A stretch of DNA of 64,000 nt from the sequence record KF620435. One strand, given 5' to 3'. The notes beneath the pieces were generated by a model that was not told the origin of the DNA, did no database searches, and worked only from the letters and a program-made list of their open reading frames with translations. The stretch's first letter is position 1. Every line of letters begins with the position of its first letter. The stretch comes from Shigella phage pSb-1. The position numbers and the translations under genes are program-made. Positions 20,648-28,035 of the stretch are shown piece by piece.

Positions 20648-21024
20648 AGATTATGTCATTAGGTAACGACACCAATGCTTTACTAGGTGTATCTGCACGT
20701 CCAATCATCATTGTTAATAAACATCATGGTAAATCAGGTGAGTATATTGGACGTGGTTCACCATTAGGCAATCCATTTGTCATTGGTAAACATGGAACCA
20801 GAGAGCAAGTAATTGCTAAGTATAAAGTCTGGTTACAAGATCAGATTGATAAAGGTAATCCAGTTGTACTGGATGAACTTAATCGTCTGGGTAATAAAGC
20901 CATTGACGAGAAAGGGTTAGCCTTACAGTGCTTCTGTTATCCGAAACCATGCCATGGTGAGGTTATTAAAGAGAAGCTAGTAAAGGCTATGTATAACTAC
21001 TTTGTAGAAAATCCAAAAGGATAA
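20644..21024 (+). CDS. DUF4326-like protein
   Basis: YIGRGSPLGNPF motif and Cys/His cluster (CFCYPKPCHGEV). Confidence 0.45.
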   Translation: MKIMSLGNDTNALLGVSARPIIIVNKHHGKSGEYIGRGSPLGNPFVIGKHGTREQVIAKYKVWLQDQIDKGNPVVLDELNRLGNKAIDEKGLALQCFCYPKPCHGEVIKEKLVKAMYNYFVENPKG

Positions 21025-21027
21025 TTC

Positions 21028-21378
21028 ATGAAAGAAATCTTAGTATTCACTACCAATGTACTTGGGCAGCATACCAATACTGCTGCCAAACTGGCATATA
21101 AGAAGCATGGTGCTCGCTGGGGTATGGCCTATGGTCATTACGGTAATAGCTTTGCCATTCCAGTAAGGGATGGCAGTGGTAACCGAATTAAAGAAGGTGC
21201 TATCTATGGCTTCGTTGAAGGCTTTATTTCCTATGCATCTACTAATCCACAGTGGGATTTCAAAGTAATGGAAGATGCCCTTCTGGACCCATACCTGTTC
21301 AATAATGTCACTGGCAATGTGCTATTGCCAGAAGCATGGCGTAAATACTTAGGGGATGCTTACAATTATTGGAGTTAA
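21028..21378 (+). CDS. hypothetical protein
   Basis: 116-aa ORF. Confidence 0.35.
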   Translation: MKEILVFTTNVLGQHTNTAAKLAYKKHGARWGMAYGHYGNSFAIPVRDGSGNRIKEGAIYGFVEGFISYASTNPQWDFKVMEDALLDPYLFNNVTGNVLLPEAWRKYLGDAYNYWS

Positions 21379-21426
21379 AGCTGCTCCGCAGCTTTTGGTT
21401 ATTAATCACATTTAGGAGAATAAGCG

Positions 21427-22242
21427 ATGTACTCATCTATTGAACATCAGAAGCAACTCGAAAAACTATTCAATAAAAATCAGCTCTTGCCTCGCATGAG
21501 GAAGGAATTCGAGGACTCCGAAGAAATTGACTTTAAGGCATTCGCTGCCTATTTAGAAATTGATTATAAGCTGCTCATTGATGCAATGGTGCAGATTGCC
21601 TTACATAAACGTGCCAACATCCAAACTATGATTGGCTCCCTCATGAGTCACTCAGATGATGCTCAGTACATCGCTGATTGTCTGTATAAGATGGCAGAGA
21701 ATGACTGCTTCAACTATGACCCTACCATCGACATGTTCGGTGTTATCTATGAGATTAGTGAAGATGTTCAGATGGAATTGGAAGCATTCCAGTACCCATT
21801 GCCCATCGTAAGTGCTCCTAAGCCTGTTAAGTGTAACCGTGATACTGGTTACTACGAAAGCAGGGGCAGCATCATCCTCAAGAAGAACCATCATGAGATG
21901 GATGTCTGTCTTGACCACATCAACCGCATGAATAACCAACGTCTCTGCATTAACTGGGACGTTGCTAACTATGTAAAAGACTCCCGTCCTAACATGGATA
22001 AACCTAAAGAAGGTGAAACTCGTCAGGACTATGAGAAACGTGTTAAAGCCTTTGAGAAGTACAGCCGTACTGCTAAGGAAGTAATGGAGTTAGTGACCAA
22101 AGAAGGTAATAACTTCTCCTTGGCTCACAAATACGATAAACGTGGGCGTACATATGCCTGTGGTTACCACATAAATTATGCAGGTACTTCATGGAATAAG
22201 GCAGTGGTAGAATTCGCACAAAAAGAACTCGTGGAGGACTAA
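21427..22242 (+). CDS. RNA polymerase II small subunit (N4 gp15-like, T7-RNAP N-terminal homolog)
   Basis: 271 aa; DKRGR matches T7-RNAP T/DxxGR motif; precedes palm-domain subunit. Confidence 0.6.
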   Translation: MYSSIEHQKQLEKLFNKNQLLPRMRKEFEDSEEIDFKAFAAYLEIDYKLLIDAMVQIALHKRANIQTMIGSLMSHSDDAQYIADCLYKMAENDCFNYDPTIDMFGVIYEISEDVQMELEAFQYPLPIVSAPKPVKCNRDTGYYESRGSIILKKNHHEMDVCLDHINRMNNQRLCINWDVANYVKDSRPNMDKPKEGETRQDYEKRVKAFEKYSRTAKEVMELVTKEGNNFSLAHKYDKRGRTYACGYHINYAGTSWNKAVVEFAQKELVED

Positions 22243-22856
22243 TGAAAATCTGCAAGGACTGTGGGGAAACAAAAGACCTCACAGAGTTCGTACCAAAATC
22301 ATCTTGCAAAGACGGTTATGAGGTACGGTGTCGTAAATGTCGAGCCTTAAGGTATAACAAAGCTGACCCAGTATGTATGTTCAGGAAGACCTATCTAACT
22401 CAACTAACTCACTCTATAAAAAGAGGACACCCACCACCCAGCTATTCACTAGAGGATTTCTATGAATGGTTGGATAAGCAACCAAATATCCATCAACTAT
22501 GGGATGATTATGTGGCGAGTAACTATGCAAAAGACTACAAACCATCCGTAGACCGTATTAATGACCACAAACCATATACTCTAGATAACATTCAGCTAAT
22601 GTCCTGGAAAGAGAATAGAGATAAAGGAGCACGTAGCAAGAAAGAAGGTAACATTGCCACTGCACAACCCGTTATCGCCTATCATCTAGATGGTACATTC
22701 TATAAAGAATTTGCTACTACAGCAGAAGCTGCACGTCATGTAAGTGGTAGAACGTGGGGTATTATAACAGTAGCCAATGGCATCCCTGTGAAAGATGGTA
22801 GAGGTCATATTTATAACCCCAAAACGTACAAAGGCTTTAAGTGGGCCTGGAAATAA
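22242..22856 (+). CDS. homing-endonuclease-like protein (Zn finger + HNH-like + NUMOD1-like)
   Basis: Cys4 cluster at N-terminus, VDRINDHKPYTLDNIQLMSWKEN, C-terminal EAARHVSG...ITVANGI. Confidence 0.5.
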   Translation: MKICKDCGETKDLTEFVPKSSCKDGYEVRCRKCRALRYNKADPVCMFRKTYLTQLTHSIKRGHPPPSYSLEDFYEWLDKQPNIHQLWDDYVASNYAKDYKPSVDRINDHKPYTLDNIQLMSWKENRDKGARSKKEGNIATAQPVIAYHLDGTFYKEFATTAEAARHVSGRTWGIITVANGIPVKDGRGHIYNPKTYKGFKWAWK

Positions 22857-22912
22857 TCATCCAATAAGCAGGCTCTCCATAGTGGGGAGCCAAGAAGCAA
22901 AAGGAACATAAA

Positions 22913-23707
22913 ATGCAACTGTTAACCGCTCGTGAATACCTGAAAGTAGATATTGCTAATAACTATGGCTTAGATAAAAAGACATGGGATGAACGTATTA
23001 GCTGGTTCGATGAGAATGAAGCTAACCTGCTTAATCTGGTAGATGAAGCTGAAGATTCTGCTCTGTTCTTTGCTGGTGTAAATGCATGGAAAGATATGAA
23101 AGCCGGTAAGCCTATTGGTTATGCTGTAGCTCTGGATGCTACATCATCTGGCTTACAGTTACTGGCCTGCCTGACTGGTGACCGTTCTGCTGCTGAACTG
23201 TGTAACGTAGTTAACTACATGGGAGAGAATGGTAAGCCATTACGTCGTGATGCTTATACAGTCATCTACCACAAGATGCTGGACATCCTTGGTGAAGCAT
23301 CTCGTATTAAACGTAGTGACACTAAGCAGGCAGTTATGACTGCATTCTACGGTTCAGAAGCCAAGCCTAAAGAAGTATTCGGTGAAGGTATTCGTCTCAA
23401 GACTTTTGAAAATGTAATGGAAACTGTTGCTAGTGGTCCTTGGGCACTGAACAAGTTCTTACTGCAATGTGGTAACCCGGATGCTAACCGTTACATATGG
23501 GTACTGCCTGACAACTTCCACGCTGTCATTAAGGTCATGGTTCCAGAAGTACAAACTGTTAACTTCTTAGGTAAGCCATTCGACATCACTCGTATGGTTC
23601 AGGGCACTGAAGAGAAGACTCGTATGCTCTCTGCTAACATCACCCACTCTATTGATGGATGGTGGTACGTGAGATGCTGCGTCGTTGTAACTTCGACCGT
23701 GACTTAG
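22913..23707 (+). CDS. RNA polymerase II large subunit, N-terminal part (frame-broken)
   Basis: T7-RNAP motif A (LDATSSGLQLLACL) and motif B (RSDTKQAVMTAFYGS). Confidence 0.8.
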   Translation: MQLLTAREYLKVDIANNYGLDKKTWDERISWFDENEANLLNLVDEAEDSALFFAGVNAWKDMKAGKPIGYAVALDATSSGLQLLACLTGDRSAAELCNVVNYMGENGKPLRRDAYTVIYHKMLDILGEASRIKRSDTKQAVMTAFYGSEAKPKEVFGEGIRLKTFENVMETVASGPWALNKFLLQCGNPDANRYIWVLPDNFHAVIKVMVPEVQTVNFLGKPFDITRMVQGTEEKTRMLSANITHSIDGWWYVRCCVVVTSTVT

Positions 23708-24129
23708 TGGAAGCTGTGCGAGAACTCTGCGATGAAGGTCCATCAGAATATGGGGAAATTGCAGGTAATCTGGAGAAGGTACAGGAGTTATGGAGCCATT
23801 ATGAGAAATCTGGCTTCTTATCCTTATCAATCCTGGATTATCTTGACCCATGTACTATTGCTTATGTAGATCGTCAGGTAGTAGCAGATATGATTGACAC
23901 TATGCCTAAGAAACCATTCCCTGTAATGACTGTACACGACTGCTTCCGTTGCCATCCTAACTACGGTAATGACCTGCGTCGTCAGTACAATCAGATTCTG
24001 TCTGACATTGCTAAGAGTGACCTACTGGGCTTCATCCTGTCTCAGGTACTGGGACAAGAGTTCTCTGCTGGTAAGCTGGATGACAGCCTCTGGCAGGACA
24101 TCCTTGAAACAGACTATGCATTAAGTTAA
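23659..24129 (+). CDS. RNA polymerase II large subunit, C-terminal part
   Basis: motif C VMTVHDCF; joins upstream ORF by re-reading one base near 23659. Confidence 0.75.
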   Translation: MVVREMLRRCNFDRDLVEAVRELCDEGPSEYGEIAGNLEKVQELWSHYEKSGFLSLSILDYLDPCTIAYVDRQVVADMIDTMPKKPFPVMTVHDCFRCHPNYGNDLRRQYNQILSDIAKSDLLGFILSQVLGQEFSAGKLDDSLWQDILETDYALS

Positions 24130-24135
24130 TAAACT

Positions 24136-24168
24136 AGCCTCACTCCCGAAGGAGTGAGGCTTATTTTT
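24136..24168 (+). terminator. intrinsic terminator (AGCCTCACTCC-CGAA-GGAGTGAGGCT + T-tract)
   Basis: 11-bp stem, tetraloop, TTATTTTTT. Confidence 0.75.
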
Positions 24169-24186
24169 TGCTTGGAGGTAACAACT

Positions 24187-24369
24187 ATGCTAATCCCTTT
24201 TGAAGTAATCTTTCAGCTAATACTGATAGTTTTATCTGTACTAGTTCTGTCTACAATAGTTCATGCCCACAAAACTAAGTTTGCTTATTACTACTATGGA
24301 GCATACTCACTAGGCTGCTTTGCAATGGCAGGATGGCTAGCTTTTGCTATCTACTGTGTAAACAACTAA
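24187..24369 (+). CDS. small membrane protein
   Basis: GGAGG RBS before internal Met; two hydrophobic segments. Confidence 0.4.
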   Translation: MLIPFEVIFQLILIVLSVLVLSTIVHAHKTKFAYYYYGAYSLGCFAMAGWLAFAIYCVNN

Positions 24370-24397
24370 CCCTCCTTTTGGAGGGTTTTTATTTTTA
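24368..24397 (+). terminator. intrinsic terminator (AACCCTCC-TTTT-GGAGGGTT + T-tract)
   Basis: 8-bp stem and TTTTATTTTT. Confidence 0.7.
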
Positions 24398-24443
24398 TTC
24401 ATCATGTATACTAATCCTGCTATTTACTTATGAGGAAATTGAT

Positions 24444-26114: not shown

Positions 26115-26321
26115 ATGGCAAGCATTGACTCCTTGACCGTATGTAATTCACGTCAAGCTCGTAACTTTATTATCCGTGCCCTAAAAGCAGGCAACGTACC
26201 GTTCCTGACTTCATCACCCGGCATGGGTAAATCTGCAATCATTCGTTCTATTGCAGAAGAATTTGGCATGAAGCTGATAGACCACCGTCTATCTACTTCT
26301 GCCCCGGAAGACCTTAACTAA
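26115..26321 (+). CDS. AAA+ (MoxR-like) ATPase, 5' exon-like segment
   Basis: Walker A SSPGMGKSAI; ORF stops right before HNH ORF; Walker B lies 0.9 kb downstream in another frame. Confidence 0.6.
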   Translation: MASIDSLTVCNSRQARNFIIRALKAGNVPFLTSSPGMGKSAIIRSIAEEFGMKLIDHRLSTSAPEDLN

Positions 26322-27192
26322 TAGGGCTTTGTGGGGGTGACCTCACATCGAAAGCTATCTAAATGGGGAAACTCCTACTATTACAGGGAAACCATGATAC
26401 ACTCTGGTTTCCCAATAGAGGACAATCCCATGCTAAATATTAATGAAAGTTGGAAAGACATTGTTGGTTATGAAGGTTACTATGAAGTCTCTACGCATGG
26501 TCGCGTTAGAAATACCCGTACAGGTATGATAAAGAACCAATGTGTACAGACTAGCGGTAAGTATCTACAAGTCAGTTTGTGGAAAGGCAACAAAGAAAAA
26601 AGATGTTTAATACATCGCTTAGTTGCTATAGCCTTCATTCCTAACCCTGAAGACAAGCCTCAAGTAAACCATTTAGACAAAAATGATAAGAACAACCATG
26701 TTCAAAATTTGGAATGGGTAACCATATCCGAGAATCATTTACATGCATTTGCTAATGGTAGAAAAGGCTCCAAATCCCGACTAGGTGAAAAAACTAGTAA
26801 AGCCTCTCAGTACCGATATGTGTACTGGGATACCAAAAGAGCTGTTTGGAAAGCATCTATAAAGATAGATGGCAAAACAGTAAACATTGGTAGATTCAAT
26901 ACTGACCTAGAGGCAGCTTTAGCCGCTGATGAGGCAATTGATTCCTGGGGCTGGGATAGAATTAAAAACTTTCAATAATTAAATGCCTAACGACTATCGA
27001 AAACACGTAGTGATACGGAAGTGAGTAGAGTAGGGTGCAAGCCAATGGCACTCGAAAAGATAGCCACCCGGACAGGTAAAGCTGAGGGTGTTGATATAGT
27101 CTGGTCTGCGTAGTAATACGTAGCTGTATATGTCCAACTCGCATATACGGGTAGAGCCTTGCAAACTCTACTGAACATAACGTAGTGGTCTG
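26320..27192 (+). mobile_element. putative group I intron carrying an HNH homing endonuclease gene, interrupting the AAA+ ATPase gene
   Basis: ATPase Walker A and Walker B separated by about 870 nt containing HNH ORF plus about 200 nt non-coding; boundaries approximate. Confidence 0.45.
26331..26978 (+). CDS. HNH homing endonuclease (NUMOD4 + HNH + AP2-like)
   Basis: GYEGYYEVSTHGRVRN, VNHLDKNDKNNHVQNLEWVTISEN, AP2-like YRYVYWDTKRAVWKASIKIDGKTVNIGRF. Confidence 0.8.
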   Translation: MGVTSHRKLSKWGNSYYYRETMIHSGFPIEDNPMLNINESWKDIVGYEGYYEVSTHGRVRNTRTGMIKNQCVQTSGKYLQVSLWKGNKEKRCLIHRLVAIAFIPNPEDKPQVNHLDKNDKNNHVQNLEWVTISENHLHAFANGRKGSKSRLGEKTSKASQYRYVYWDTKRAVWKASIKIDGKTVNIGRFNTDLEAALAADEAIDSWGWDRIKNFQ

Positions 27193-28035
27193 CCATTCCG
27201 TAATGGTGACCGTGCAGAGTTTATTCCATTCGCTGACTTATTCCCTATTGAAGGGGATGAAGTACCAGAAGGATATAACGGGTGGCTCCTGTTCCTTGAT
27301 GAGTTCCCATCCGCTCGTAAAGAAGTAATAGCTGCTGCATACAAACTAATTCTAGACCGTATGACAGGTCAGAAAAAACTTCATCCTAATGTGATGATTG
27401 TCTGTGCTGGTAACAAAGCTACTGACCGTGCCATTGTTAACCCGCTAGGCACTGCAATGCAGTCTCGTGTGGTCCATTTTGAAATGGAACTTAACTTCGA
27501 CATCTTTGTTGAAGACGTAATGATTCCTCAACAATGGGATGAACGTCTGGTTGCATTCTTACATGCTAACCCTGGTTATCTGCATGACTTCGACCCGGCC
27601 CATAAGAACAAAACATTCTGTTGTCCTCGTACTTGGGACTTTGTTAATAAAGACCTCAAGAACCAGCCAGAAGGTGCTCTTCCTGATGAAGATTCCATCT
27701 ACTATGCAGGTCACGTTACTGCTGGTAAGGCTACAGAATTTGTTCAGTTCACTCAGGTATATAATCGTATCATTACGATTGAAAAGGTAGTCAAAGACCC
27801 ACTGGGCTGTGCACTACCGGAAGATAACAACCTGTGCTGGGCTACCGTTAACCATCTGGCTAACAAAACTACTGAAGAGAACTTTGTTGATGTTCTTCAG
27901 TACATTGAACGCTTTAAAACGTTCACCCATAAGATTCTGTACTTCCGTACAGTAGGCAATGCATTACCAGATCTTCAGGCTACTCCTGAATGGCGTAAGG
28001 CTGCTGCTAATATCTCTCGTTACATTCACGGATAA
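27193..28035 (+). CDS. AAA+ (MoxR-like) ATPase, 3' exon-like segment
   Basis: frame open from 27181; Walker B LLFLDEF, sensor MIVCAGN; ORF track starts it at 27361. Confidence 0.55.
   Translation, partial: PFRNGDRAEFIPFADLFPIEGDEVPEGYNGWLLFLDEFPSARKEVIAAAYKLILDRMTGQKKLHPNVMIVCAGNKATDRAIVNPLGTAMQSRVVHFEMELNFDIFVEDVMIPQQWDERLVAFLHANPGYLHDFDPAHKNKTFCCPRTWDFVNKDLKNQPEGALPDEDSIYYAGHVTAGKATEFVQFTQVYNRIITIEKVVKDPLGCALPEDNNLCWATVNHLANKTTEENFVDVLQYIERFKTFTHKILYFRTVGNALPDLQATPEWRKAAANISRYIHG

Follow-up and report, generated by a model that had tools for sequence, protein, structure and literature searches.

A probable free-standing homing-type endonuclease with a PacI-like active site between the RNAPII subunit genes of Shigella phage pSb-1

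T4-like phages carry free-standing homing endonucleases of the Seg and Mob families. Here we analyzed a 64,000-nt stretch of Shigella phage pSb-1 (sequence record KF620435; hereafter 'the window'), the genome of an N4-like coliphage of the genus Gamaleyavirus, with a focus on an open reading frame (ORF) at positions 22242-22856. This ORF is located between the genes for the two subunits of the N4-like RNA polymerase (RNAP) II, gp15 and gp16. Based on sequence profiles, a structure model and comparison with related phages, it probably encodes a free-standing homing-type endonuclease, in which a PacI-type His-Me finger is joined to an I-HmuI/NUMOD-like tail, and which belongs to a large phage family. 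In Skunavirus, where I-HmuI-like HNH genes occur as well, free-standing 'PacI-like' HNH genes have been described as presumptive homing endonucleases (PMC12724721). Like these genes and the T4-like Seg and Mob genes, the pSb-1 gene is intergenic, optional and positioned beside conserved replication or transcription genes. Also as in these systems, unrelated endonucleases share one insertion site, and flanking sequence is swapped together with the gene. The N4-like RNAPII slot differs in that it is known from sequence comparison.

Two enzymes of known structure come closest to the pSb-1 protein. R.PacI (PDB 3LDY/3M7K) similarly possesses an N-terminal Cys4 ribbon followed by a beta-beta-alpha-metal site, in which D-R without a His is followed by a Tyr in the inter-strand loop and then by N...N. 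According to PMC5714182, PMC4081073 and PMC3384342, PacI has no catalytic His, the inter-strand loop Tyr takes over its role, and a single metal ion is bound by one Asp and one Asn. PMC5714182 and PMC4081073 describe PacI as an active DNA-cutting enzyme despite the absent His. PacI has been assigned to the predominantly viral group 20 of the His-Me fingers, and the groups that are thought to be inactive have lost both the His and the Tyr (PMC5714182). PacI differs from the pSb-1 protein in being a homodimeric restriction enzyme of 142 aa that cuts both strands of a short palindrome; its active site is surrounded by a second zinc site and a NUMOD tail is lacking, whereas the pSb-1 protein has no second Cys pair, bears an I-HmuI-like DNA-binding domain and shows the genetic behavior of a mobile phage gene. 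I-HmuI (PDB 1U3E), a group 2 homing endonuclease of the Bacillus phage SPO1, shares with the pSb-1 protein an HNH core that is followed by a NUMOD-like helix-turn-helix tail. Among the PDB entries it scored best against the family profile (E=4e-5) and also ranked first in Foldseek, and its D74 and N96, the residues named in PMC12724721, correspond to D104 and N125. I-HmuI has a catalytic His75 (Arg in the pSb-1 family), is intron-encoded and nicks one strand, whereas the pSb-1 gene is free-standing and its product has a zinc ribbon in place of the N-terminal sheet of I-HmuI.

The closest counterpart at the level of the locus is gp15.1 of phage G7C, annotated as 'putative HNH homing endonuclease' and present also in PGN829.1, ST4, Bas96 and Moonfish. 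It belongs to the same family, has the D-R...Y...N motif and occupies the same slot in the same genus. However, gp15.1 is about 32% identical to the pSb-1 protein despite flanks that are 88-95% identical, it is followed by a 1-nt spacer to gp16, and the hairpin spacer shared by other alleles is missing. Because of the low identity and the different spacer, we consider G7C gp15.1 an independent occupant rather than an allele of the pSb-1 gene.

Fold and active site of the pSb-1 endonuclease

The product of the ORF is 100% identical to the Shigella phage pSb-1 'endonuclease VII' (AHB79472.1/YP_009008455.1), and a cutoff of E<=1e-30 gives its family 2,362 cluster representatives (clusters at 50% identity). 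Since it is identical to a deposited protein and part of a large family, the ORF is a real gene and not a chance ORF. A single-sequence phmmer search against the PDB returned only a spurious Sir2 zinc-ribbon match, which we rejected, and profiles were required to place the protein. A database search gave 88 homologues, and an AlphaFold2 (AF2) model was built on 77 sequences. This model is confident (predicted local distance difference test, pLDDT, 94.2) and contains the beta-beta-alpha-metal fold according to DSSP. The protein and its predicted parts are as follows.

22242..22856, + strand: endonuclease ORF, 204 aa, ATG start (phrog_1035, E=3.8e-32; AF2 pLDDT 94.2)
22242..22361, + strand: N-terminal Cys4 zinc ribbon, residues 1-40 with C4, C7, C30 and C33 (alignment; aligns to PacI 1-45)
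22542..22646, + strand: beta-beta-alpha-metal core, residues 101-135 (DSSP on the AF2 model; aligns to PacI 90-118 and to I-HmuI D74/H75/N96)
22662..22853, + strand: C-terminal I-HmuI/NUMOD-like DNA-binding domain, residues ~141-204 (profile alignment to I-HmuI)

When the family profile was compared to the PDB, residues 96-196 aligned to I-HmuI 66-171 (E=4e-5), with D104/R105 on I-HmuI D74/H75 and N125 on N96. The match to PacI (E=0.018; 0.025 for the nuclease half alone) is made up of two segments in collinear order, one covering the zinc ribbon (1-45) and the other 'GVDRSDSFEGYSPQNARLACFICN'; in the second segment, 'SVDRiddskpYtldNIqLmtWkeN' is paired with PacI 90-118 'GVDRSDSFEGYSPQNARLACFICNRIKSN'. 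The order was the same in Foldseek, where I-HmuI was the top match (E=6e-4), followed by PacI (E=1.5e-2, prob 0.99). In the model, the core is formed by a strand (101-105) ending in D104-R105, a loop with Y112, N116, a second strand (117-121) and a helix (122-135) with N125, and the family alignment indicates a helical middle region of the protein. The family shares the conserved block P-S-V-D-R-x-D-D-x-x-P-Y-T-L-D-N-I-Q-L-M-T-W-x-E-N.

An earlier annotation made from the letters of the window (the sequence-only reading) had described an ORF with a Cys4 zinc finger, an HNH-like core and a NUMOD1-like tail, and had proposed a domain search. The 204-aa ORF and its Cys4 motif were confirmed, all four Cys being invariant among 30 aligned family members. 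The tail was recovered through the I-HmuI profile match and through the family, in which 25 of 77 members match NUMOD1 and 24 of 77 match I-HmuI_NUMOD-like; the window protein itself stays below the Pfam threshold. The domain search thus led to I-HmuI and PacI by family and structure matches, and a Pfam scan of the single ORF sequence gave no family at E<=0.1. Likewise, none of the Pfam families detected in the 77 scanned members is an HNH model, although P0087, a longer and distant homologue that is not part of this set, has a precomputed HNH_3 match.

Taken at face value, the GenBank name and the identical label of phrog_1035 would make the protein a recombination endonuclease VII-type junction resolvase for phage DNA processing. 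Against this, neither Pfam Endonuclease_7 nor an endonuclease VII structure was matched at permissive thresholds, the H-x-D-H and CxxC...CxxCN core is absent, a sequence-specific NUMOD-like tail is present, and the gene is dispensable in close relatives. A resolvase function is therefore highly improbable, and 'endonuclease VII' is a misnomer for a protein without Endonuclease_7 features. For annotation, the gene is an ordinary optional selfish gene that is already in GenBank under a misleading name.

The sequence-only reading had further pointed out an Arg in place of the usual HNH His and had asked whether the enzyme is still active. The substitution is real: V-D-R-I comprises residues 103-106, R105 (codon CGT at 22554-22556) falls on I-HmuI His75, and a general-base His is not present at the end of the first strand. 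The metal-binding Asp and the helix Asn are present as D104 and N125. Residue 105 is Arg in 191 of the 192 motif-containing family members and His in the remaining one, and the Tyr seven residues past the Arg (Y112) occurs in all 192. Among the 77 sequences, D104, Y112 and N125 are invariant, and at least 90% retain R105 and N116. The set D104-R105-Y112-N116-N125 aligns with PacI D92-R93-Y100-N104-N113, where Y112 is placed on the Tyr of 'FEGYSPQN' (PacI residue numbers such as Y100 are HMMER alignment coordinates). A second Cys4 zinc motif was not found; PacI 'ACFICN' aligns with 'LMSWKEN', and residues 41-135 contain no conserved Cys. Between pSb-1 and HK2, the relative with the most similar gene, dN/dS is 0.069 for the ORF (29 synonymous and 9 non-synonymous changes) and 0.041 for gp15, and G7C-type genes gave values of 0.06-0.10. 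Purifying selection on the ORF is as strong as on gp15, its essential neighbor.

The distribution across the family indicates that Arg is the ancestral state. Together, the family-wide Arg, the invariant Tyr, the match to the PacI motif and the purifying selection suggest that the active site is of the PacI type and probably functional; by analogy to PacI, Y112 would act in place of the His. The alternative would be a decaying, inactive remnant of a homing endonuclease, in which the His was replaced by Arg. This could explain the Arg at the I-HmuI His75 position and the lack of a Pfam HNH match for the protein, and homing endonuclease genes frequently degenerate once fixed. However, the Arg is family-wide (191/192) and not a private change, the ORF shows no truncation and lines up end to end with hundreds of relatives of about 200 aa, dN/dS is 0.069, and neither frameshifts nor stops occur in pSb-1, HK2 and the 22 members of the 90% cluster, save for one truncated copy of 128 aa. 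Decay is therefore largely refuted by the conservation data, and we regard it as very unlikely. As the absent His is normal for the family, the gene appears to be an ordinary selfish gene that is not decaying. Correspondingly, the suspected inactivity was not borne out by the invariant Tyr (192/192), the PacI match and the selection data, and a label such as 'HNH with dead active site' would be as wrong for the pSb-1 ORF as its present name.

Occupants and histories of the gp15-gp16 slot

The endonuclease gene is embedded in the RNAPII operon, the further features of which are given here.

21427..22242, + strand: homologue of N4 gp15, small RNAPII subunit, T7-like RNAP N-terminal part (phrog_2166 'N4-like RNA polymerase', E=4.7e-115)
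22185..22853, + strand: swapped cassette, gp15 3' end plus endonuclease ORF, relative to the ECBP1/Bp4-type allele (blastn boundaries, sliding identity)
22857..22912, + strand: spacer common to endonuclease-free alleles, with hairpin 22871-22891 and the gp16 ribosome-binding site (near-identical in HK2, ECBP1 and Bp4)
22913..24129, + strand: homologue of N4 gp16, large RNAPII subunit, in two frames 22913-23707 and 23659-24129 (phrog_2051, RNA_pol)
24136..24161, + strand: terminator-like hairpin closing the gp15-endonuclease-gp16 unit (11-bp stem, then a T run)

The gp15 homologue also aligns to phrog_414, a profile of single-chain RNA polymerases with 816 positions, over its positions 227-423, and the two gp16 halves match Pfam RNA_pol (PF00940, E=1e-12) and phrog_2051 at positions 1-251 and 248-401. 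The location that the sequence-only reading had given, between a T7-RNAP N-terminal homologue and the palm subunit, was thus correct (phrog_2166 and RNA_pol); its palm gene as one ORF was not, as gp16 is divided by a 1-nt deletion in the record. The ATG of the endonuclease gene shares its A with the TAA stop of gp15 (TAATG; GGAGGACTAATG), and GGAGGA lies 5 nt upstream, so that the endonuclease is likely translationally coupled to gp15. A scan for sigma-70 promoters and terminators found no promoter-like or terminator-like site between gp15, the endonuclease gene and gp16. As no internal signal was detected and a strong terminator hairpin lies past gp16, the three genes would form a single transcription unit. 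There was no Rfam intron match in 21000-24400, and the ORF, starting on the gp15 stop and lying between two genes, is not intron-encoded. Two further hairpins were observed, one just 5' of gp15 (21377-21395; AAAGCTGC-TCC-GCAGCTTT) and the spacer hairpin before gp16 (22871-22891; GGCTCTCC-ATAGT-GGGGAGCC), which is kept in alleles with and without the endonuclease gene. They may serve as N4-type hairpin promoters, in RNA processing or as terminators.

We then compared this slot in related phages. In a search of the phage collection, 60 records matched the region. Using a query of five alternative slot sequences, 37 records were sorted, corresponding to about 28 distinct phages after merging of GenBank/RefSeq duplicates. 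The slot was occupied as follows.

pSb-1 type: 1 phage, HK2
G7C gp15.1 type (family member, ~32% identical): 5 phages, G7C, ST4, PGN829.1, Bas96 and Moonfish
Mimir124-type HNH_3/AP2, unrelated: 3 phages
UE-M6-type HNH_3/AP2, unrelated: 4 phages
conserved 53-aa ORF: 15 phages, ECBP1, Bp4, St11Ph5, IME11, PhAPEC5/7 and others

Across the roughly 30 distinct Gamaleyavirus genomes scored in the collection, the pSb-1-type gene was found only in HK2 (95.6% aa identity), and in N4 the slot is empty, with a gap of 50 nt between gp15 and gp16. Since N4 and almost every close relative do without it, the endonuclease ORF is not needed for RNAPII function. The synteny comparison that had been proposed in the sequence-only reading therefore revealed other cassettes in the place of the gene, and no conserved non-nuclease homologue running through all relatives. 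The commonest occupant, the 53-aa ORF (MKTNIGSYELWVNEECVYSG...; ECBP1 L002 3004-3165, Bp4 L005 1161-1322), is 89-100% identical at the nt level. It matches no Pfam family, and its first 11 nt are shared with the end of gp15.

The boundaries of the swapped segment could be placed by comparison to ECBP1. In blastn, the flanks are 95% identical on both sides (window 21373-22184 and 22854-24300). Because the homology breaks at 22184/22185 and resumes at 22854, the swapped cassette comprises the last 58 nt of gp15 (22185-22242) in addition to the ORF. Within these 58 nt, numerous synonymous substitutions and a single codon distinguish the alleles: gp15 ends in ...KELVED* in pSb-1 and HK2 and in ...KELVNED* in most relatives. 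These differences are of the kind expected at or next to a homing site, which suggests that the 3' end of gp15 may be such a place.

A wider census in IMG/VR comprised 80 N4-like loci, of which 77 were scoreable. The gap between gp15 and gp16 ranged from -1 to about 3,500 nt, and a recognizable HNH-type gene was present in the slot of at least 10 of the 77 loci (3 of the pSb-1 ORF family and 7 HNH_3). Five further loci carry another His-less type of slot ORF of about 166-213 aa (L030 5116-5625; L031 5116-5625; L045 5387-5887; L055 4835-5353; L061 4803-5444 and 6143-6643). Its members end in a second HNH-like motif, in which the His is missing and a loop Tyr is present, and have no Pfam match; judged by this motif, they may represent a further tyrosine-type lineage.

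The closest relatives of the pSb-1 ORF are nearly all found directly 3' of gp15 in N4-like phages (P0002, P0012, P0016, P0026, P0034, L057 and pVco-5). More distant family members occur in unrelated phages, namely crAss-like and rV5-like phages and a Vibrio phage that is not N4-like, and Acinetobacter phage XC38 has a member that is placed after gp16. Identities to the pSb-1 proteins were determined for all three genes at six loci (gp15/ORF/gp16, in %).

HK2: 97/96/90
P0002 contig: 95/77/88
G7C: 95/32/88
L011: 47/56/50
L105: 39/50/45
L012: 27/48/38

Relatives of the ORF that are 48-77% identical adjoin gp15 in N4-like phages whose gp15 is 27-95% identical. As the ORF identities do not follow those of gp15 and gp16, the endonuclease gene and its flanks have discordant histories. 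The idea of a free-standing mobile endonuclease at polymerase genes, as put forward in the sequence-only reading, thereby gains comparative support from sporadic presence, the same junction and discordant identities.

The truncated copy mentioned above comes from a record filed as Salmonella enterica (P0090, P0264; 74,785 nt), which also contains an N4-like gp15 (89% identical) and looks like a phage contig filed as bacterial. This copy of 128 aa is N-terminally truncated and has no zinc ribbon, and would be either a mis-called start or a degenerating copy.

The same comparisons bear on the possibility that the protein is a domesticated DNA-binding accessory, in which a nuclease-like domain no longer cuts and instead serves the RNAPII operon, for example as a site-specific binder or transcription factor. 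The canonical general-base His is absent, the gene follows directly after gp15 in seven divergent N4-like lineages with its start codon coupled to the gp15 stop, and it is under strong purifying selection; there is also a precedent in SMAD MH1, a His-Me finger that became a DNA binder (PMC5714182). However, the gene is missing from nearly all close relatives and from N4, and its slot is taken in other phages by canonical HNH_3/AP2 endonuclease genes. Moreover, all PacI catalytic positions (D104, N125 and Y112) are kept, whereas the inactive groups are without His and Tyr alike (PMC5714182). We therefore consider domestication unlikely and favor a mobile homing-type endonuclease.

Proposed homing and origin of the junction

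The optional presence, the alternative occupants, the cassette-like boundaries and the discordant histories together are the signature of a free-standing homing endonuclease. In the following model, catalytic activity, nicking versus double-strand cutting, the target site and homing itself are all inferred. The gene would be transcribed as part of the RNAPII operon, with its translation coupled to that of gp15, so that the protein is made together with RNAPII. By means of its NUMOD-like tail and zinc ribbon, the nuclease would then be placed on a long asymmetric target in endonuclease-free N4-like genomes, at or near the 3' end of gp15 or the gp15/gp16 junction. D104 and N125 would bind one divalent metal ion, Y112 in the inter-strand loop would replace the His as general base or nucleophile, and R105 would assist. 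The naive genome may be nicked, as by the monomeric I-HmuI, or cut in both strands, as by the dimeric PacI. In a mixed infection, the break would be repaired from the carrier genome, and the cassette of gp15 3' end and ORF would be copied into the slot.

Several points weigh against this interpretation. The literature yielded no experimental work, biochemical or genetic, on any member of the pSb-1 ORF family. The sequence link to PacI is marginal by itself (E about 0.02), the second zinc site of PacI (CFIC) is absent, with LMSW in its place, and it is the alignment that places Y112 with respect to the metal site. In Skunavirus, the one PacI-like enzyme tested in vivo did not belong to the pair of enzymes for which exclusion of phage sk1 was reported (PMC12724721). 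A useful accessory protein would likewise be compatible with the constant place after gp15 and the strong purifying selection, and the deep branches could possibly reflect vertical inheritance with many losses.

The gp15/gp16 boundary appears to be the point at which a single-chain T7-like RNAP was split into the subunits of the N4-like RNAPII. Today, it seems to be a hot spot at which HNH endonuclease genes of no fewer than four or five lineages are found. One PacI-type lineage would have tracked this junction across phages whose gp15 is down to 27% identical. A bolder version, which we regard as a long shot, is that the ancestral polymerase was split by an endonuclease insertion ('genes-in-pieces'). 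The His-less tyrosine family would then be the surviving site specialist, maybe acting through a covalent tyrosine-DNA intermediate instead of hydrolysis. Unsplit gp15-gp16 fusions were not found among the best 120 of 1,277 gp15 homologues, all of which are 263-303 aa long, a result that is uninformative on the fission idea.

The family as a whole, which exceeds 2,000 representatives when clustered at 50% identity, appears to combine a PacI-like, His-free tyrosine center with a homing-endonuclease tail. If a member were shown to cut DNA, the PacI mechanism would no longer be confined to a single restriction enzyme but would apply to a major class of mobile nucleases in phages. Such a result would also provide new nicking or cutting enzymes with long targets and explain the mosaic RNAPII operon of N4-like phages.

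Mosaicism of gp16 and a putative intron in the ATPase gene

In the pSb-1 record, gp16 is affected by a 1-nt deletion (GGG to GG, 23657-23658) between the HSIDG and MVVREM codons, resulting in two overlapping frames; the record annotates a 264-aa 'RNA polymerase'. According to the alignment, gp16 is intact at this site in HK2, ECBP1 and Mimir124, and the other relatives examined are annotated as full length. An exact match of the deleted allele was not found in IMG/VR. The downstream frame opens on a native Met codon without a good ribosome-binding site. An error in sequencing the homopolymer is the simplest and probable explanation for the frameshift in this record; a true frameshift would leave an essential polymerase in three pieces. 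P0112 (264 aa), a candidate for a second case, was rejected, since it is the downstream exon of a known intron: a spliced group I intron has been described in g16 at QAV|MTAFYGS (bioRxiv 10.1101/542787) and is seen here as P0105/P0112.

The gp16 gene is interrupted at varied positions by inserted HNH or unknown ORFs in Moonfish (L008 1756-3941), pVco-5 (L010 3632-5728), XC38 (L017 350-2424) and L012 (3968-6193). As these interruptions occur at several positions across N4-like phages, the RNAPII genes are a recurrent target of mobile elements. Two alleles with an identity of only 58-69% were seen for a gp16 segment of about 200 nt (23680-23880), while the remaining gp16 is 92-99% identical. One allele is found in pSb-1, ECBP1, Bp4 and Mimir124 and the other in HK2, G7C, UE-M6 and PGN829.1, independent of the slot type.

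Further downstream, an AAA-ATPase gene (26115-28035) is interrupted by 868 nt (26315-27182), an insert that is common to PW8 only among 56 relatives and holds an HNH ORF (26331-26978; NUMOD4/HNH_3/AP2). The Rfam group I intron model gave a full-length but sub-threshold match at 26834-27123 (26.8 bits, E=0.001). We consider the insert a putative HNH-bearing group I intron. Exon 1 ends in U and the intron in G, in line with group I rules, and predicted splicing at ...GAAGACCU|UAGUGG... restores EDLSGLPFR.

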